The translations under genes and the position numbers were made by a program. Under the pieces are notes generated by a model that had not been told where the DNA came from, ran no database searches, and worked only from the letters and a program-made list of their open reading frames with translations. Shown here in pieces: positions 3,626 through 46,831 of a stretch of DNA of 64,000 nucleotides (positions are counted from its first letter, which is position 1; each line of letters begins with the position of its first letter). Source of the DNA: a phage; sequence record PZ445443.1. The stretch is one strand, 5' to 3'.

Positions 3626-4210
3626 ATGAAAATACTTCAAGAGTTTAAACTTTACCAACCGGGATCTGGCGAATACCACTCCAACAAGGAAACCAAGGAG
3701 CTGACCCCTCAAGAGGTCGAGGATTACACCGCATACACTGGGTATTTTTTACGTAATGATGATGGTGATTGGTATGTGCAGTCACGAACATTACGACAAG
3801 AAAATCCAGGGTGTATCTTCCTACTTGTTGACGAGAAGGGAATTCTTAAGACATCTACAGAAGAACCTGATGCCTTATGGCCTGCTCCAGGTCTTCGTGT
3901 GGTTATCGCCAAAAAAGAAGAGGTACCAGAAAACATTATGCTTCACCACGACGCTTTGCGTTTAGTTGGTGATGGATTTGTCACAGACAATGAATTCTTT
4001 GTTCAACAGGCAGAGGGTGTCATAGAGACAGAACTTGCTTGGGCTACTGCTAGAATTGGTGCCTATCAAGACATGATTGACCTTGAATATGATCTTACTG
4101 ATGACCAGAAACGTAACATCAGAGATTTGAAAATGTACAGGGTAAAACTTCTTGAAATAGATACATCTAAAGCCCCTGACATTTTCTTCCCGGAGCGACC
4201 TACCCTCTAA
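3626..4210 (+). CDS. tail fibre assembly chaperone (Tfa/gpG-like)
   Basis: 194 aa; C-terminal LKMYRVKLLEIDTSKAPDIFFPERP fits the conserved Tfa C-terminal signature (YRV-L--ID-S-AP-I-FP--P) as recalled; sits directly 3' of a fibre gene. Confidence 0.7.
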   Translation: MKILQEFKLYQPGSGEYHSNKETKELTPQEVEDYTAYTGYFLRNDDGDWYVQSRTLRQENPGCIFLLVDEKGILKTSTEEPDALWPAPGLRVVIAKKEEVPENIMLHHDALRLVGDGFVTDNEFFVQQAEGVIETELAWATARIGAYQDMIDLEYDLTDDQKRNIRDLKMYRVKLLEIDTSKAPDIFFPERPTL

Positions 4211-17073: not shown

Positions 17074-17307
17074 TTAATCTTCGTAAATCAGGATTTCTGC
17101 TTTAGGTTTTCGTGCTTTCAGGTCCAGCTCTATCCAGTGCACCATAGCTGTTTCAAGAAAAACAGCTTGGATGCATCCGTCCTCAGCGTGCCCCACCAAC
17201 ATAACGAGATCTTCACCTTCGTCATCTGCATCACGAACATAAAGAATCTCTCCAGATTCGAAGTCTTTCACAACCTGATTGCTAGATAATTTTCGAATTT
17301 TTGCCAT
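17074..17307 (-). CDS. small paralog family protein (77 aa)
   Basis: ORF track; same length class and hydrophobic/acidic pattern as the three 87-aa paralogs. Confidence 0.5.
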   Translation of the reverse strand: MAKIRKLSSNQVVKDFESGEILYVRDADDEGEDLVMLVGHAEDGCIQAVFLETAMVHWIELDLKARKPKAEILIYED

Positions 17308-17308
17308 A

Positions 17309-17572
17309 TCAGAAACCCTCTAAAAAGCTCTTGTAGAAAACAATCTCAGTATCCACACCAGTCACAATCTTGTCGTTCCTGATTTCATCGGTAAGATAGG
17401 TGTCAAAACGCAGAACCTGTGTGGTGTTGTCACACATCCACTCAGCTGTGACCATTGCGAAAATCTTAGCATCTTCATTATCTGGTGTGAATGTTACCAC
17501 CTCACCGCACTTAAACTTTTCGATAGGCTGAGTGTTAGCTTTCGGTTCTGCGATAGTGATTTTTGTGGTCAT
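17309..17572 (-). CDS. small paralog family protein (87 aa)
   Basis: ORF track; CGEVV motif shared with neighbour; ATGA start/stop overlap. Confidence 0.55.
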   Translation of the reverse strand: MTTKITIAEPKANTQPIEKFKCGEVVTFTPDNEDAKIFAMVTAEWMCDNTTQVLRFDTYLTDEIRNDKIVTGVDTEIVFYKSFLEGF

Positions 17573-17835
17573 TATTCTCCTCCTTCTTTTGAATAGCTTG
17601 TCTCTCCAAGGATGGTAATTTTGGTGTCAAGCTCTGTAACTTTCATGTTTGGCGGCAGATCGTACAACTCATTATTTTCTAAATCGAACCCCCACACACA
17701 ATGTTCTCCTGTTTTGACAATCATAACTATGTTTTGAATACCGTCTCCGTCGCAACTTACCACGGTCCCACACGGAAAACTGTCTGCACGCTTTTTGTTC
17801 TTCACCTTAGAATTGAATACAATGCTAGTAGCCAT
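17572..17835 (-). CDS. small paralog family protein (87 aa)
   Basis: ORF track; MAT...KK...CGTVV...VK...FDL...LP...V-E-D...ILGE aligns with neighbour. Confidence 0.55.
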   Translation of the reverse strand: MATSIVFNSKVKNKKRADSFPCGTVVSCDGDGIQNIVMIVKTGEHCVWGFDLENNELYDLPPNMKVTELDTKITILGETSYSKEGGE

Positions 17836-18098
17836 TATTGTTCCTCCACCATAACTTCGCCAAGAATTTCTATGCAGGCATCCATTTCTGTAACAACCAA
17901 ACTGTGAGGTAGTTCTACAAACACCTTTCTGAACAGGTCAAATACCCCAACATATATGTTTGCAGGATGTGATTTTACAACAAGTGCTGTATTCACATCC
18001 CCAAGTTCATCAACAAACATCACCACAGCGCCTGGAGCTACTGAGGACAGATACTTCTTAGTTTTACGGTTTGATGCAAATTTTAACTCTGTTGCCAT
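17835..18098 (-). CDS. small paralog family protein (87 aa)
   Basis: ORF track; MAT...KK...GAVV...VK...FDL...LP...V-E-D...ILGE aligns with neighbour. Confidence 0.55.
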   Translation of the reverse strand: MATELKFASNRKTKKYLSSVAPGAVVMFVDELGDVNTALVVKSHPANIYVGVFDLFRKVFVELPHSLVVTEMDACIEILGEVMVEEQ

Positions 18099-35792: not shown

Positions 35793-38570
35793 ATGAGCAT
35801 GTGGTCTTTCGATTTTGAGTCATCCGGTTTGCTGGAAGACCCAGATCTTTATTATCACTGCGGCCTGTTTAAAGAGCTGAATAAGAACCGTTTTATGCTG
35901 TTCCTTCCTCTAAATGACCGCACACACTACTCCGAGGAGGATATAGAGAAGGCTAAGAACTTTATTCTGGCAAAGAAAACTCTTTATAAAGATTTTGAAG
36001 TTCGCATAGCAGATTTTTCGGAGTTAGAAGGTTGGCTTACAGGCAATTCCGACTGGTCACCAACAGCTTTGAACTGCCATAACTGCTACAGTTATGACTT
36101 TATGCTGATGGAAAGATTATCCGGTATTCATTTTGATATGTTCCGTGATCCTAAATGCATGGGGACTATCAACGACCACCAGGTCAACCTGTTTGATACG
36201 TTGGCGATGAGCCGAATCTTATGGCCTGATCGCCCTTTACCAAAAGGTTGTCCGGACTCTGTATTCAACCCGGTTACTAAGAAAATGCAGCCTGTCGGTC
36301 CTCACGGCCTTATGGCATGGGGCTACGCCCTTGGTAACCAGAAAGTTCAAATTGATGACTGGCGCGATCTTCCGTTGTGGAAGTATGTGGATCGTGTATT
36401 CGAGGACGTTATCATCCAGGAGCTGCTCTGGAAAGAGCTGGTAGCGGAATCAAAAGGTGTATTCTACGGCAAATCTGACATGCAGAACTTTATGTACGAT
36501 CCTGCCAAAGAGAAGCCGAAAGGGTTCAAGAAGATCACCTGGAAGAACGCATTACGCCGAGGCATGCTGCAGCACTTCCTGATGGAGCTGCAGGCCCGTC
36601 AGGGTGTGTATTTTGACATAGATGGGGCTATTGCTTTACGTGACCGTTGCGATGCGTGGATGAAAGAAATCGCTGATCGTGTTGAACCGCAACTACCTTT
36701 AAAAGAGCTGTCAATGTCTCAGCGGCCCAAGTTCCCTGAAAAGCCGTTTAACCAAGATGGGACAATCTCCAATAATGGTTGGAAATGGTTAAAAGATAAG
36801 CTTGGCTATCCTGTAGATATGAGCGCTTTAGAGTTCAAAGCCCCGCCTAAGCGAGCATTTACCTCTACAGGAGATGTCAGTAAGATGGGGATAAAATGGT
36901 GTGAAGAGATGGGCTGCAAAGACCCCGATAAGATGGCTGATTTCTTGAGAGGCTATATTAAGGGCACCTCCACACCACAACCTTTACCTAAAGAGCTAAT
37001 GGATCAGGCAATAAGTGATCTACAGCAGAAGCGAATGCCGGACTGCAAGATACCTATGAAAATCAGCAACCAGGACGACATTAAGCGATACCTGATCAGT
37101 GCTGGTTGGCTTCCGACAATGTGGAGAACTAAGGATGTAACTAAAGACAGCAAGAAGAAAGCTCTACCTGATGCAGATGTTGATGCACGAGTATATGCAT
37201 ATATGGACGAGCTTTTAGAGTCAGAGTATTGTGACCTGATTATCAACTTCTGGAACAAAACTGATGCTAAGTTCCAGACAACCGTGCACAAGTTCCGAAG
37301 CTTTCCTAACTCCGAAAGGATTAAAAAGGAAGTATTCGGGAAAATACGTAGAAAAGCTAGGGCACTTATTACTTCTCCGCAACTGAAAGATACGTTTGGA
37401 CACCTATGCCCTAATCTTGAAAAATTGAACGGAGAGATGGCTAAAGATATCGTCTTGTGGTTATCATTGCGAAACCGCAGATCGGTACTTGATCCAATCA
37501 AGGAGGATAAGGTTGATACTGGTCTTCTTAATCACCCACGTTTGAAGATTGACCATAAGCTTCCTGCTAAAAGTTCTGGGTTAACAAACACTTCCCGACA
37601 GAAACACAGTATTTGTGCAAACATGCCTAAACCATCTCCTAAAGTGGTTATGGGTAAAGAGATGCGTAGTCTGTGGGGTGTTCCTCCAGGATACTTTGAG
37701 ATCGGTATTGACGGGTCCAACTTAGAGCAGCTTATCGGGGCTTGGGGTGCCTTTGAGTTCGACAACGGCCTGTATTACGATGTTGTAAGTAACGGGGACG
37801 CACACCAAAACAATGCTGAGGCATATACAAAAGTAGCAGGTAGAGAGGTGTCTCGTAACGACGGTAAACCTATCACGTATGGGGTTATGTATGGGGCACA
37901 AAAAGATAAAGTTGCAGATATGCTGGACATCTCTCCAGAGTTGGGACAAAGGGTAATCGATGCACTCTGGGATGCCAACCCTGGTCTTAAGGGGCGTAAA
38001 GAAGATCTGGAGAAATTCTGGGAAGCAACGGGTAAGAAGTTTATCTACTCTTTTGATGGTCATGCTATCTGGACCCGATCTAAACACTCTTTACTTAATG
38101 CATACCAACAAAATGGCGGCGCATCGTTGTGTGACTTAGTTGGGATACTCATGCACCATCAAATGGTGAAGCGTGGGTGGTACGATGAAGGTGTTCGTCG
38201 TATTATCTATTACCATGACGAATATCAGCTTCAAGTCCCTGACACACCGAAGTATAAGACTGTGTACACCTTCGACACAATCGAAGAACTGGAAGCATTT
38301 AAGGCAGAGCAGGAGGCCAAACTTCATGTGTTCGACGGTCATAAGTACAAAAAGGCACGCAAGGATGAGGACGGAAACGAAGTGGTTGACAGAGACGGAA
38401 ACACGGTGTACGATCCTATCCTGAACGATGACGGAAAGCTTGAACTTATCTGGAGCCCTGTGGGTGAAATGGTGGTGCATTGCTTCTGGCAAGCTTCTAA
38501 AATGATGGGCGTCCCGTTCCAGATCACAGGTGAATACCTGTGTGGTCGTAATTGGGGTGATTGTCACTAA
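35793..38570 (+). CDS. DNA polymerase, family A, with 3'-5' exonuclease domain
   Basis: 925 aa; Exo I-like FDFES; motif B-like KPITYGVMYG; motif C-like YHDEYQ; RBS AAGGAGA. Confidence 0.85.
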   Translation: MSMWSFDFESSGLLEDPDLYYHCGLFKELNKNRFMLFLPLNDRTHYSEEDIEKAKNFILAKKTLYKDFEVRIADFSELEGWLTGNSDWSPTALNCHNCYSYDFMLMERLSGIHFDMFRDPKCMGTINDHQVNLFDTLAMSRILWPDRPLPKGCPDSVFNPVTKKMQPVGPHGLMAWGYALGNQKVQIDDWRDLPLWKYVDRVFEDVIIQELLWKELVAESKGVFYGKSDMQNFMYDPAKEKPKGFKKITWKNALRRGMLQHFLMELQARQGVYFDIDGAIALRDRCDAWMKEIADRVEPQLPLKELSMSQRPKFPEKPFNQDGTISNNGWKWLKDKLGYPVDMSALEFKAPPKRAFTSTGDVSKMGIKWCEEMGCKDPDKMADFLRGYIKGTSTPQPLPKELMDQAISDLQQKRMPDCKIPMKISNQDDIKRYLISAGWLPTMWRTKDVTKDSKKKALPDADVDARVYAYMDELLESEYCDLIINFWNKTDAKFQTTVHKFRSFPNSERIKKEVFGKIRRKARALITSPQLKDTFGHLCPNLEKLNGEMAKDIVLWLSLRNRRSVLDPIKEDKVDTGLLNHPRLKIDHKLPAKSSGLTNTSRQKHSICANMPKPSPKVVMGKEMRSLWGVPPGYFEIGIDGSNLEQLIGAWGAFEFDNGLYYDVVSNGDAHQNNAEAYTKVAGREVSRNDGKPITYGVMYGAQKDKVADMLDISPELGQRVIDALWDANPGLKGRKEDLEKFWEATGKKFIYSFDGHAIWTRSKHSLLNAYQQNGGASLCDLVGILMHHQMVKRGWYDEGVRRIIYYHDEYQLQVPDTPKYKTVYTFDTIEELEAFKAEQEAKLHVFDGHKYKKARKDEDGNEVVDRDGNTVYDPILNDDGKLELIWSPVGEMVVHCFWQASKMMGVPFQITGEYLCGRNWGDCH

Positions 38571-38586
38571 TGTAAACTATCAACAC

Positions 38587-38904
38587 ATGGAAGTGTTGTT
38601 GAGCAAAGAGGAGACTTTTATGGTAGTAGAACCAACAAAAACATTTACATCCATGACTATCCCTGTTATTATGCAGGTGGAGTGTGTTCAGGTATCTCAA
38701 GTGTGGCCAGGCACTAAAATCCCAACAGGGCCTGATTTCTTTCAGGTTGGGAAAGTGTACAATGTCTGGAAGGCACCAGATTGTCACCCTTTCATTAAAG
38801 ATGACCGTGGAATGCTGTGGTATCTTGGAAATGATTTGACACTGCACCTTGGGAATGCTATTATTGCAGTATTCAGACTTAACAAGAAGGAGACTGATCA
38901 ATGA
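38587..38904 (+). CDS. small paralog family protein (105 aa)
   Basis: FFQVGKVYNV...IKDDRGMLWYL aligns with the two downstream paralogs; start uncertain (GTG 38530 also possible). Confidence 0.45.
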   Translation: MEVLLSKEETFMVVEPTKTFTSMTIPVIMQVECVQVSQVWPGTKIPTGPDFFQVGKVYNVWKAPDCHPFIKDDRGMLWYLGNDLTLHLGNAIIAVFRLNKKETDQ

Positions 38905-39128
38905 CGACTTTGGTTAAAGCTACCTTTGTAGAAGAAAAGATGACAGACCTGTCATTCTTTAAAGAAGGAAAGACCTACGAGGTTTATTACGATAAAGCTC
39001 GTGCAAACAAGATGATTAAAGACGAGGAAGGGATTGCCTGGTTTATCTCCCATCTGGCAAACGGTGAGTATCATATCTACGGAACCACCCTGCTTGCCAA
39101 GTTTGTAGCTGTTGAAGAGGACCTATGA
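38901..39128 (+). CDS. small paralog family protein (75 aa)
   Basis: FFKEGKTYEV...IKDEEGIAWFI; RBS AAGGAG; ATGA coupling. Confidence 0.55.
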   Translation: MTTLVKATFVEEKMTDLSFFKEGKTYEVYYDKARANKMIKDEEGIAWFISHLANGEYHIYGTTLLAKFVAVEEDL

Positions 39129-39319
39129 AAGTAAAGTATCTGGCTGAGGGCATGAGTAGGTATTTCACCCTTGGTGAAGAATATTGGCCCTTTACAAGCA
39201 ACGGCGATGTCTACGTGAAAGATAATTTCGGCACGCCGTGGTTTCTGCACTCTAATGGGCTGGGATACTCCATTTACTGCGGTGCAGTGAACAACACAAC
39301 TCTTGCAGAGTTCGTTTAG
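39125..39319 (+). CDS. small paralog family protein (64 aa)
   Basis: YFTLGEEYWPF...VKDNFGTPWFL; ATGA coupling. Confidence 0.55.
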   Translation: MKVKYLAEGMSRYFTLGEEYWPFTSNGDVYVKDNFGTPWFLHSNGLGYSIYCGAVNNTTLAEFV

Positions 39320-39329
39320 AGGAGGTAGG

Positions 39330-39701
39330 ATGTTAGTAAAAGGTACCCACACAGTCAAACAACGTATTGAAGTTGAGATTGATGATTGTGAGCTGAAGCA
39401 TATTTTACGGTCATGCTCCAACGTTTTGCTCCTTAGTATTCTTCAGGAGCGAGCGGAGAACGAGTTCTTAAATGCATTGGCAGGCCGTCCCGGTGACTTC
39501 TGTGTGCGTAAGCGTGGTGACAACAAGTCATGGTTGTGGGAAATCGATGCCGACTGGGATTACCACAAAAATGAGGGTATAGATGAGCCTATTCGTGAAC
39601 TGACTGACAAAGAGATTCAGATGTACAATGAAGTTTGTCATTGGGCAACACGCCAACAAATTTACCTAGACCCTGTGTGGCTGATTGAAAATAGCCATTG
39701 A
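39330..39701 (+). CDS. hypothetical protein (123 aa)
   Basis: ATG 39330 with GAGGAGG upstream. Confidence 0.5.
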   Translation: MLVKGTHTVKQRIEVEIDDCELKHILRSCSNVLLLSILQERAENEFLNALAGRPGDFCVRKRGDNKSWLWEIDADWDYHKNEGIDEPIRELTDKEIQMYNEVCHWATRQQIYLDPVWLIENSH

Positions 39702-39777
39702 CAAGAAGTAAGATTAGATATAAGATGCTTCGCACAAACAGAGTGTTGATTTTTAAATAACTAAGGAGACTGCTAAG

Positions 39778-40032
39778 ATGAAAATTACTTTGAAGTCAGA
39801 ATGCGTTGCAAATGACCGAGCTTTTAAAGATTGCACAGTCGGTGCAATTTATGAAGCAGAGTTTTGTGAGAACCCTCTGGTAAAAGCCCTCCTGGAAGAA
39901 GGGGCCCCTTTATCACAAGAAGAGATCGATGAGCTGGAAAACTCAGCACAGTGCCTTACCTTTAAAGATGATGAAGGAGACTCTGTATGGTGCACTGTTA
40001 ATGAAGTAGTTTTTGTAAAACCTGAACATTAA
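39778..40032 (+). CDS. small paralog family protein (84 aa)
   Basis: FKDCTVGAIYEAE...FKDDEGDSVWCTV; RBS AAGGAGA. Confidence 0.55.
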   Translation: MKITLKSECVANDRAFKDCTVGAIYEAEFCENPLVKALLEEGAPLSQEEIDELENSAQCLTFKDDEGDSVWCTVNEVVFVKPEH

Positions 40033-40035
40033 TAC

Positions 40036-40064
40036 TTGACAACAGTGATGGGGCCTAATATAAT
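40036..40064 (+). promoter_or_regulatory. sigma70-type promoter with -10 flanked by GGGCC/GGCCC inverted repeat
   Basis: TTGACA (40036-40041), 17-nt spacer, TATAAT (40059-40064); inverted repeat GGGCC...GGCCC brackets the -10. Confidence 0.5.
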
Positions 40065-40095
40065 GGCCCTATCAAAACGAAAGGGGACCACAGCA

Positions 40096-40356
40096 ATGAC
40101 CAAACAATACCAACGAATTAAAGCCAAGGTTAAGCCAGACTATCTGGAGAAAGACTTTGCTTTTCGGGACTGCACAGCCGACAAAGTTTACACAGGGGCT
40201 GTCCTGTTGAACGATAAACTTGAAGTAGATGTGCTGGGTAAAGAGGCCGTTATCGAGGATGACAACGGTGACTGTGTTTTCTGCACCACACGGGAGCTAG
40301 AAGTCTTAGAATACTTCGGTGAAATCTTCAACTCTTTAGACGACGAGGAAGCGTGA
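40096..40356 (+). CDS. small paralog family protein (86 aa)
   Basis: FRDCTADKVYTGA...EDDNGDCVFCTT parallels ORF 39778..40032; ATG 40096 downstream of promoter (track start 40036 lies in promoter). Confidence 0.5.
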   Translation: MTKQYQRIKAKVKPDYLEKDFAFRDCTADKVYTGAVLLNDKLEVDVLGKEAVIEDDNGDCVFCTTRELEVLEYFGEIFNSLDDEEA

Positions 40357-40745
40357 TGAAAAATATTTGGGATATTGATATCTTTGAAGCCTCTAAGCTT
40401 GACGGTGCTGATGGAGTTATTATGGTGTCTGATGGCAAGGCAACACTAACTTCCGGAGATATCATCTATGCCTTGGACGAGCTGGCGCTTCTGAAATCTA
40501 CCGGTAACACTTTAGAGGAGCGTCTTCAAGGCTTCGCCTTCAAAGAAGGCACAAATACAGCCATGATGTGCACCACACGGACAGTTCAGGTGGGTAACGG
40601 TGTCTATATGATCATTGCTGTGTGTCCTAAATTCAGCAACGTCAACAAAGATGATGCTGACGCTGTCAACGATGTGGTTGTTCTCTTCGTGGGTGACGCT
40701 ATGGCAGACCTGATGAATGCAGGAGAAGCGGCAAATGAAGACTGA
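40353..40745 (+). CDS. hypothetical protein (130 aa)
   Basis: ORF track; ATGA coupling. Confidence 0.5.
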   Translation: MMKNIWDIDIFEASKLDGADGVIMVSDGKATLTSGDIIYALDELALLKSTGNTLEERLQGFAFKEGTNTAMMCTTRTVQVGNGVYMIIAVCPKFSNVNKDDADAVNDVVVLFVGDAMADLMNAGEAANED

Positions 40746-41037
40746 AAACATTACCCCAGCAGGGTTCTTAAAAGTATACCGTGAACTGCTATATACTACA
40801 GAGGACAGTGTTCTAGAGTATCCAGAATATCTTTTGCTGTATAAGTATCTACAGGAAGCTGGTGAAAATCTGCCAGTTAGTGCAGAAGGCGGTCCGAACT
40901 GGGTATACAGCGCATGGAGAAAGGTTGACATTCTCCCAGATCCAGGTAAAGATATGGTAGTTTGGCAGCTTATCAACAACATCGGGATTCCAATCTTTGA
41001 TGAAGCTGTTAAAATCTATTTTGAACTTGACGATTAA
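40735..41037 (+). CDS. hypothetical protein (100 aa)
   Basis: ATG 40735 with AGGAGAA upstream, overlapping upstream stop. Confidence 0.45.
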   Translation: MKTENITPAGFLKVYRELLYTTEDSVLEYPEYLLLYKYLQEAGENLPVSAEGGPNWVYSAWRKVDILPDPGKDMVVWQLINNIGIPIFDEAVKIYFELDD

Positions 41038-41054
41038 TATCAGGAGACCTTAAG

Positions 41055-41300
41055 ATGACTGAAGTAGTTGCTCGCGCAGGACAGAAAGTACGTTGTGTTG
41101 AAGTAGGTTTTGGTGGCAAAGGGTGTCAAAACTTGACTCAAGGTAAGGAATACGCTGTTATTTCTGGTGGTGGCGACGAAAGTATTGTGTTCGAGGGCCA
41201 CATCCTGGATGCTGAAAACTTTGAAATCTTTGACGACGATGGGGATCCAATCACCTGCCTGCTGGACGGGAATTGGGGAACTTTCGAAGTGATTGGCTAA
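41055..41300 (+). CDS. small paralog family protein (81 aa)
   Basis: GKEYAV...FDDDGDPITCLL; RBS AGGAGA. Confidence 0.55.
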   Translation: MTEVVARAGQKVRCVEVGFGGKGCQNLTQGKEYAVISGGGDESIVFEGHILDAENFEIFDDDGDPITCLLDGNWGTFEVIG

Positions 41301-41383
41301 CAAATACCTATTGTAATTTGCAGAAGGGGATGCTAAAATAGTGTCTCCTTCTATGTTGTTCAAATAAAATCGGAGATTCCATA

Positions 41384-41749
41384 ATGGAACAAATGAACGA
41401 TCAAGCGTCGGTTGCGATGAACGAGCAAGAACAACCTCAAGAATTTTTCTTAGGGTTAAGTAAAGATCAAGTGTCTCTTCTACTAGTGCTTTCTTCTTTC
41501 ATGGGAAGACTTCAGGAGCTCACACAACAACCAGAGGCTGAACAATTATTTCAAGCTCTGCGTGAAGAAGAAAAATATCGTCGTTTGGACTATGCCTTAG
41601 GTTGGGTAGCTCAACAACGAGATATGCTGATGGCCCTCTCTGGGACCACAAGTTTTGCAATGGGGCTGTTGGCTCAAGTTCAGGACAAATTAATTCAAGC
41701 AGGGTTTGCACACACGGCAAACACTAACGAAGAACAAGGAGACAAATAA
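41384..41749 (+). CDS. hypothetical protein (121 aa)
   Basis: ORF track; RBS GGAGA. Confidence 0.5.
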   Translation: MEQMNDQASVAMNEQEQPQEFFLGLSKDQVSLLLVLSSFMGRLQELTQQPEAEQLFQALREEEKYRRLDYALGWVAQQRDMLMALSGTTSFAMGLLAQVQDKLIQAGFAHTANTNEEQGDK

Positions 41750-46395: not shown

Positions 46396-46641
46396 ATGAA
46401 CAAAGGGTGGACATTTGTAGACGGCGTTAAAAACATGCCTCTAGGAAAGTATATTGTAGCCATGGCAGATGAGAATGGCAAGGTGGATTTCGGAGTTTGC
46501 GAGGTTGTTCTTGCAGGATCTGGTGACTATGCTCACAAAACTGGGATAATTAACGGTCATTTCTACTTTGATTACAACCCTGTTGTGGCGTATATGGCTA
46601 TGCCAGAGTTAGAGCTCCCAAAGGAGGGTGCAGATGTTTAA
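46396..46641 (+). CDS. hypothetical small protein (81 aa)
   Basis: ORF track; RBS AGGAGA. Confidence 0.5.
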   Translation: MNKGWTFVDGVKNMPLGKYIVAMADENGKVDFGVCEVVLAGSGDYAHKTGIINGHFYFDYNPVVAYMAMPELELPKEGADV

Positions 46642-46831
46642 GCTTAAATCTGCATGGAACATCGCTGTAGGGGACGAGATCCGCATCCCAGGTGGAAAGA
46701 CCATTATGAAGATATCACGTATCGAGTATGAAGGTGATCGTGTATTTCATATCTTTGCAGAAGATGGTCGAGAAATTTATATACAGGCAGGCTCTCACAT
46801 CTATATCCGTAAGAAAGGGGACGACAAATGA
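46634..46831 (+). CDS. hypothetical small protein (65 aa)
   Basis: ATG 46634 with AAGGAGGG 5 nt upstream. Confidence 0.5.
   Translation: MFKLKSAWNIAVGDEIRIPGGKTIMKISRIEYEGDRVFHIFAEDGREIYIQAGSHIYIRKKGDDK

Follow-up and report, generated by a model that had tools for sequence, protein, structure and literature searches.

We analysed a 64,000-nt stretch of phage DNA (PZ445443.1; hereafter the window), a segment of a Vequintavirus (rV5-like) genome, with respect to eight small proteins encoded in it: the tandem trio A1, A2 and A3 and the genes B1, B2 and B3, which make up one cluster, and two distant minus-strand genes, C1 and C2 (Table 1). On balance, we favor the explanation that all eight are stand-alone SH3-like small barrels, that the five sequence families into which they fall are probably very distantly related, that the A types have the fold of Gp54 of phage Bas11, and that the proteins act as early binders of host or defence proteins. 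What is new and informative is that the A trio is predicted to have a Gp54-type fold; the proteins are new members of an already known structural kind. A first-pass annotation had described a dispersed family of at least eight small beta-rich proteins with a common signature. This observation is largely real, and the members do lie on both strands, C1 and C2 on the minus strand and the others on the plus strand. The claim of one family receives only partial support: there is a superfamily-level signal, but the proteins divide into five sequence families connected by weak profile links.

The architecture that the eight proteins would have in common begins with strand 1, from which a long loop holding a short helix leads to strand 2; this strand opens with the pattern h-x-x-G-K-x-Y-x-V. 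A hairpin with an acidic D-(D/E)-x-G turn would come next, and a final h-x-(F/W)-E-V strand would complete the barrel. The A types would carry one extra strand, giving the six-stranded fold of Bas11 Gp54.

Sequence relationships among the eight proteins

The similarity linking all eight proteins is clear within the A group and within the B1/B2 pair, and between groups it is found at the profile level only. When each protein was compared by phmmer with all 449 open reading frames (ORFs) of at least 40 aa in the window, A1 and A2 matched each other with E values of 8e-5 and 4.5e-4, A2 and A3 were reciprocal best matches (E 0.018–0.026), and B1 and B2 were linked at 5e-6 (B2 to B1) and 2e-5 (B1 to B2), with an hhalign value of 96%. 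In the alignment of the A proteins with their orthologs, F20, Y26, D41, G44, W47, A66 and F68 are invariant. By these comparisons A1, A2 and A3, which the first-pass annotation had also grouped together, are established as true tandem paralogs, and B1 and B2 likewise. B3, which it had placed with the latter pair, has no pairwise link to them and joins them at the profile level only. B3, C1 and C2 gave no significant pairwise match to any other member; B3 and C1 are reciprocal best matches, but at E values of only 0.3–0.5.

Against Pfam and NCBIfam models none of the eight proteins gave a match above threshold, and in PHROGs the five sequence families (A1–A3, B1/B2, B3, C1 and C2) belong to separate families, all of unknown function; C1 and B3 both weakly match phrog_10169. 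A word-indexed search of 5.8 billion proteins, made with B3, with the A trio and with B1, B2, C1 and C2, returned Vequintavirus orthologs only and no distant relatives. An IMG/VR scan with B1 found two loci, both in near-identical phages, and PDB sequence searches, for which B3 and the A profile served as queries, produced chance-level matches only. Our literature search found no paper describing this Vequintavirus small-protein family.

A full HMMER scan with B3 (1.84 billion representatives) yielded 19 matches at E ≤1e-3, comprising 3 Vequintavirus forms of B3, 11 small proteins of 69–102 aa and 5 large multi-stretch proteins. The large ones (P0093, P0094, P0096, P0100 and P0101; 442–2115 aa) contain 3–8 repeated stretches each, which may be the same hairpin repeated or low-complexity matches. 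The Drexlerviridae phage PaulSarasin (Bas09) has a clear B3 homolog, bas09_0072 (6e-8), which adjoins a polynucleotide kinase gene. This protein, a weak tblastn match of B3, was at one point guessed to be Gp54; the guess was rejected, as the phage is Bas09 and the protein a B3 homolog. The conserved cysteines that the first-pass annotation had included in the motif are not kept across the wider B3 family, and a metal or disulfide site at the Cys pair, considered at first, was therefore discarded.

The connections between the groups emerged from profile comparisons. With an extended B3 profile, the best four non-self matches among the 449 ORFs were A3 (E 0.0075), B2 (0.02), C1 (0.027) and B1 (0.057). 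Profiles were also built without one group, and the members of that group were then ranked among the window ORFs not included in the profile. A3, A2 and A1 took ranks 1, 2 and 4 (E 0.0018, 0.0066 and 0.37), and B3, C1 and C2 each took rank 1 (E 0.0024, 1.7e-4 and 0.0026). The likeness of C1 and C2 to the cluster proteins, which the first-pass annotation had noticed, thus reappears with profiles that omit them, but not in pairwise searches. Each left-out protein was further shuffled 2000 times and scored with profiles containing or lacking the Bas sequences. The real score of an omitted member was reached by 0–29 of its own 2000 shuffles (empirical p 0–0.015), with none for A3 or C1 and 29 for C2 when the profile lacked the Bas sequences. 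The signature therefore withstands, modestly, the shuffled-sequence comparison that had been proposed for its refutation.

In profile–profile comparison, hhalign related the B3 family to C1 at 66–83%, to B1/B2 at 22–66% and to C2 at 25–29%. A Drexlerviridae protein, bas09_0074, serves as a bridge: it is matched by the A profile (7e-5), the C2 profile (0.007) and a B3+C1 profile (0.003), and hhalign gave 26–41% between it and A and 40–57% between it and C2. C2 has a homolog in phage Bas11, bas11_0061 (hmmsearch 1.2e-5, hhalign 94%), and bas11_0041, a DUF7244 protein of the SH3 clan, is matched by the A profile at 6.6e-4. No further significant members were found in the window, as none of the other ~440 ORFs reached E <0.1 against these profiles; the ORFs at 46628–46831, 17074–17307 and 3626–4210 recurred near the tops of the lists, never at E <0.1, and are not counted as members. 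By sequence, B3, C1 and C2 are separate families, joined to the others at the superfamily level only, by a link that seems real but modest.

Predicted folds and the resemblance to Gp54

The AlphaFold models of A2 and B3 are both small β-barrels, as expected from the first-pass description of the proteins as small and beta-rich. The A2 model, obtained from a 28-sequence alignment of the three A families, is all-beta (pLDDT 91.1, pTM 0.79), with strands at residues 2–10, 25–31, 36–40, 46–48, 51–53, 56–60 and 64–70 and a short helix at 12–16. It is predicted to form a six-stranded small β-barrel in which a prominent loop separates strand 1 from strand 2, the arrangement that characterizes Gp54. 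The B3 model (pLDDT 96) is an ordinary five-stranded SH3/KOW-like barrel, as in the SH3 clan, and matches SH3/KOW barrels. In both models the motif occupies equivalent elements: h-x-x-G-K-x-Y-x-V marks the beginning of strand 2, downstream of the short helix, and (I/V)-x-D-(D/E)-x-G-x-x-h forms a β-hairpin with an acidic turn. The two predicted folds are thus related, as SH3-like small barrels, and not identical, the A type having an extra strand. Foldseek comparison of the A2 model with BFVD retrieved dozens of uncharacterised phage proteins of 60–80 aa at TM 0.7–0.8, from Drexlerviridae, Klebsiella siphophages, Cronobacter phage CR9, phAPEC8 and others, often several per phage.

Gp54 of Bas11 (PDB 9AXB; Pfam PF25180, 'Phage antiviral trigger protein Gp54'; Zhang et al., Nature 2024, PMC11578894) consists of 66 aa, is non-essential and has no known function; it activates the immune sensor CapRelSJ46, to whose pseudo-zinc-finger domain it binds, with partial unfolding of the Gp54 barrel (PMC11578894). 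Its authors called the barrel topology very rare in nature, and likened the structure to a five-stranded SH3 domain, where a 3-10 helix replaces the additional strand of Gp54 (PMC11578894). They also suggested that the normal role of Gp54 may be to inhibit another defence system (PMC11578894). The residues contacting CapRel are G24, I25, S39, L41, W43, Q47, N50 and W53, and the inactive Bas10 homologue differs from Bas11 Gp54 by substitutions at just two positions, A7 and I25 (PMC11578894).

Gp54 (sequence from the Bas11 genome MZ501085.1, locus L009, 39780–39980, minus strand) and the A proteins are both small phage accessory proteins of ~65–75 aa found among small ORFs, with six-stranded barrels (predicted for the A type) whose strands 1 and 2 are connected by a long loop. 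Common to both are F21-x-x-G24 (F20 and G23 in A2) and G40-x-x-W43 (G44 and W47 in A2), with FKKG of Gp54 aligned with FFKEG of A2 and GLTW with GIAW; L48-x-N50 of Gp54 also has its counterpart in L52 and N54 of A2. A2 was singled out independently by the fold comparison, which alone found Gp54 where the PDB sequence searches did not, and by a profile of seven Gp54 homologs. Of the 449 window ORFs this profile matched A2 best (E 0.027), and of 946 ORFs in the related phage isim it matched the A2 ortholog best (E 0.052). The A trio is accordingly predicted, on the basis of the model, to have the Gp54-type fold. Identity between Gp54 and the A type is 14%, and the fold is confined here to the A type, B3 lacking it. 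Moreover, the Gp54 sequence family occurs only in siphophages of ~50 kb (215 records), whereas the present case is a 137-kb myophage with 3–4 copies.

A second comparison is provided by DUF7244 (PF23896, SH3 clan), a stand-alone SH3 protein encoded in the lysis region of Drexlerviridae, immediately upstream of the holin/endolysin genes, and proposed to be a cell-wall-binding SH3 partner of the endolysin (PMC13164509). As is proposed for the window proteins, it is a stand-alone SH3-like barrel (~56 aa) of coliphages, and the two have the pattern MKVKCV ... Y-E-A ... I-K-D-E-S-G in common; hhalign between its member bas11_0041 and the extended B3 profile gave 43%. DUF7244 occurs as one copy, invariably beside the holin/endolysin genes, whereas the window genes are multi-copy and next to replication genes. 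The cluster does not occupy a holin/endolysin position, and the lysin and spanin genes of isim are annotated elsewhere in the genome. Among classical barrels, B3 was compared with the NusG KOW domain (1M1G), the PhnA-like C-domain (2AKK) and the Hpy99I N-domain (3FC3), from which it differs in being stand-alone and highly acidic; the window proteins gave no sequence match to the SH3, KOW and PhnA Pfam models.

Several results weigh against the proposal of eight distantly related barrels that act early as binders of host or defence proteins. The models cover A2 and B3, two of the eight members, and SH3-like barrels are very common, so that a shared fold is no proof of common descent. When B1 and B2 were left out of the profile they ranked third and fourth (E 0.2 and 0.3), and hhalign between A and the B3 family gave 10–12%. 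The seven-sequence Gp54 profile aligned with A over 41 columns through both motifs, with a weak result (P 0.008, ~5%), the single Gp54 sequence remained below 1% with every family, and none of the eight proteins matched PF25180 at E ≤1 (cut-off 27 bits; Gp54 scores 116 bits). The best score against PF23896, that of B3, was 14.5 bits (E 0.038) versus a cut-off of 27, and the other seven proteins gave no match. In a hand alignment anchored on FxxG/GxxW, only three of the eight CapRel contacts appear identical in A2 (G24, W43 and N50); because most of the CapRel-contact residues are not conserved, triggering of CapRelSJ46 by the A proteins is not expected. The functional analogy is thin, because the native role of Gp54 itself is not known, and the early timing is deduced solely from the promoter consensus.

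The main rival explanation, which we consider possible but improbable, is that several unrelated families of small β-barrels acquired the motif by convergence, because any SH3-like barrel requires a turn rich in glycine ahead of strand 2 as well as a tight D-x-G turn in the hairpin. Convergence would fit with the lack of significant pairwise matches for B3, C1 and C2, with the assignment of each family to its own PHROG, with the low hhalign values between A and B3 and between Gp54 and the B or C families (<3%), and with the different strand numbers of A2 and B3, the latter of which did not retrieve 9AXB. It fits poorly with the finding that left-out groups rank first among the 449 ORFs and beat 98.5–100% of their own shuffles. 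It would not lead one to expect, either, that the four best non-self matches of the B3 profile are all candidates, that intermediate sequences such as bas09_0074 are matched by profiles from three sides, or that the rest of the ORFs stay outside E <0.1. We continue to favor very distant relatedness of the five families as the more probable reading.

Genomic setting and probable role

The main cluster lies directly 3' of the gene for a 925-aa family-A DNA polymerase (35793–38570, plus strand), and its other flank is a gene for a 423-aa protein, labelled in a related record as a putative single-stranded DNA-binding protein. The 2.9-kb cluster region is 98–99% identical to more than 100 rV5-like E. 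coli myophages, the near-identical relatives including naam, Murica and RudolfGeigy (Bas52). All eight ORFs of the first-pass annotation exist and are annotated coding sequences in near-identical phages, with ribosome-binding sites in Murica; only the start of A1 was probably misplaced. It had been put at 38587, and the Murica annotation has it at 38557. The most likely start is the ATG at 38620, because AGGAG lies 7 nt upstream and because the largest ortholog cluster (P0044) and phrog_12922 start there. ATGA stop–start overlaps join A1, A2 and A3 and suggest translational coupling. B2 likely starts at the ATG at 40096, which is preceded by an AAAGGGG ribosome-binding site, because the other candidate, the ATG at 40063, falls within the region of the −10 box of the promoter and overlaps it. 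In B1, a helical-looking insertion of ~25 residues separates strand 2 from the DDEGD hairpin. Interspersed in the cluster are the non-member ORFs 39330–39701, 40356–40745 and 40735–41037.

The putative internal promoter that the first-pass annotation had placed between B1 and B2 is a perfect consensus: it is the only 12/12 sigma-70 match in the 64 kb, and an exact copy is kept in three relatives (Murica, L007 and isim). Sigma-70 sites with at most one mismatch number 9 in the window, versus 0.58 expected. The hairpin after B3, the counterpart of a site that the Murica annotation calls a terminator, would close a transcription unit consisting of B2, the ORFs 40356–40745 and 40735–41037, and B3.

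Table 1. Coordinates of the eight genes and of the putative expression signals in the window
Feature	Coordinates	Strand	Description
A1	38620..38904	+	94 aa, A-type with N-terminal extension of ~40 residues; phrog_12922
A2	38901..39128	+	75 aa, A-type paralog; start overlaps A1 stop (ATGA)
A3	39125..39319	+	64 aa, A-type paralog; start overlaps A2 stop
B1	39778..40032	+	84 aa, pI 4.2, B2 paralog; phrog_12544
B2	40096..40356	+	86 aa, acidic, B1 paralog; first gene 3' of consensus promoter
B3	41055..41300	+	81 aa, acidic; phrog_4927, wider family also in Drexlerviridae
C1	13693..13911	-	72 aa, nearest to B3 family; phrog_30425
C2	62837..63088	-	83 aa, acidic (FDCDDDGDDRYVCEV)
Predicted consensus sigma-70 promoter	40036..40064	+	TTGACA-N17-TATAAT, 12/12, between B1 and B2
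Promoter-like site	39698..39726	+	TTGACA-N17-TAAGAT, 10/12, in 76-nt gap upstream of B1; consensus match only
Promoter-like site	38836..38864	+	TTGACA-N17-TATTAT with TG, 11/12, inside 3' end of A1, upstream of A2; consensus match only
Intrinsic-terminator-like hairpin	41322..41352	+	14-pair stem directly after B3

Outside the window, a fourth A-type paralog was found both by Foldseek with the A2 model (BFVD) and by the A sequence profile (E 1e-5). This protein, isim_172 (78 aa; Vequintavirus isim, MN850597.1, 121873–122109, which is 21873–22109 of L012), is encoded between the nrdD and nrdG genes and is annotated as 'putative minor capsid protein'. This brings the count for the genome to nine members or more, of which four are A-type. 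The tandem trio A1–A3 is a product of local duplication, and so is the fourth copy. Divergence is faster than that of the polymerase, A2 being 81–96% identical between genomes whose polymerases are 99–100% identical.

The computed pI is 4.1–4.3 for B1, B2, B3 and C2, which carry a net charge of −10 to −12 over 81–86 residues, 5.0 for A2 and A3, and 6.7 for A1 and C1. The most likely role of the proteins is that of early, mostly acidic, host-protein-binding accessory factors. Transcription would occur early, by the host RNA polymerase from sigma-70 promoters, and the mostly very acidic products would be dispensable binders of host or defence proteins, employed in taking over the host or countering its defences. 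The parallel with Gp54 would also make them potential triggers of bacterial immune sensors, and their duplication and fast divergence may reflect an arms race.

The location of the genes also raises the possibility, which we consider unlikely, that the proteins are nucleic-acid-binding accessory factors of the replication or transcription machinery, comparable to KOW, Tudor or Sm-like barrels. The cluster abuts the DNA polymerase gene, bas09_0072 abuts a polynucleotide kinase gene, and the fourth A-type copy lies between nrdD and nrdG. The strong negative charge of B1, B2, B3 and C2 and the pI of A2 and A3 are, on the other hand, unfavorable for binding nucleic acid, and no KOW or other nucleic-acid-binding Pfam model was matched at E ≤1. 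In addition, no recognisable homologs of the cluster follow the polymerase gene in GAP31, Mydo, SSBI34 and W70, which represent other Vequintavirinae genera, so that by sequence the cluster is specific to its genus and is not a core replication component. Minor virion components or lysis-module helpers, as evoked by the label of isim_172, by a weak match of bas09_0074 to phrog_14592 ('virion structural protein') and by the cell-wall-binding hypothesis for DUF7244 (PMC13164509), are a very improbable interpretation, given that the annotations are inherited labels without data and that the window genes have sigma-70 consensus promoters and lie in replication and early-type small-ORF regions, outside the structural and lysis modules.

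Gp54 is the only protein of this small-barrel kind with a known activity, the triggering of CapRelSJ46, and its fold is now predicted for a tandem trio in an unrelated, well-studied group of E. coli myophages (rV5 and the BASEL phage Bas52 RudolfGeigy among them), as well as for dozens of unannotated proteins of T1-like phages. The fold would thereby gain a wider set of relatives for working out its function, concrete genes would be supplied for counter-defence or immune-triggering screens, and a large share of the hypothetical small-ORF content of these phages would fall into one structural class. A broader proposal, which we put forward tentatively and regard as doubtful, is that Bas11 Gp54, DUF7244 and the five Vequintavirus families constitute one large, fast-evolving, unrecognised superfamily of coliphage small-barrel accessory proteins. 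If this is the case, each genome would carry several of them (nine or more in rV5-like phages, and no fewer than six in Bas09 and Bas11 combined), and the barrels would be metastable binding modules that phages diversify against host defence proteins and that bacterial sensors such as CapRel have come to recognize. The rV5 cluster would then be a ready panel of candidate counter-defence factors or immune triggers.

Related proteins and neighboring observations

Several small proteins of the T1-like phages Bas09 PaulSarasin and Bas11 JohannLBurckhardt display a G-K-x-Y ... D-(D/E)-x-G-D pattern, namely bas09_0072, bas09_0074, bas11_0041 (DUF7244), bas11_0061, bas11_0071, the C-terminus of bas11_0048 and the N-terminus of bas11_0079, so that carrying several copies is not a peculiarity of Vequintavirus. 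The C2 family profile matches isim_151 at E 0.001 among the 946 isim ORFs; this 110-aa protein, labelled 'putative exodeoxyribonuclease' (L012 7530–7865), may be another SH3-like relative outside the window.

C1 has two allelic forms, only ~50% identical among otherwise near-identical Vequintavirus genomes, and a 125-aa extended variant (P0080). B2 and the non-member ORF 40356–40745 (plus strand) share the strings FAF(K/R)..(C)T and CTTR..V, and the database protein P0081 (131 aa) consists of the N-terminus of B2 fused to the C-terminus of the 40356–40745 ORF. The junction falls precisely at CTTR, suggesting that the two genes have recombined.

Sixteen GenBank records (MG0656xx) named 'Campylobacter phage' are ~98% identical to window positions 38500–41400, and their host label looks doubtful. 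The DNA polymerase gene next to the cluster is intact here, whereas the homologous gene of APECc02, FV3 and isim is interrupted by an HNH homing endonuclease gene. Finally, the minus strand carries a separate set of tandem paralogs, three adjacent 87-aa ORFs at 17309–17572, 17572–17835 and 17835–18098, the last two of which are linked by phmmer at 1e-8 and match the first at 0.12–0.14. Two of their three isim orthologs bear the same VOG label, and the ORF at 17074–17307 possibly belongs to the set too.

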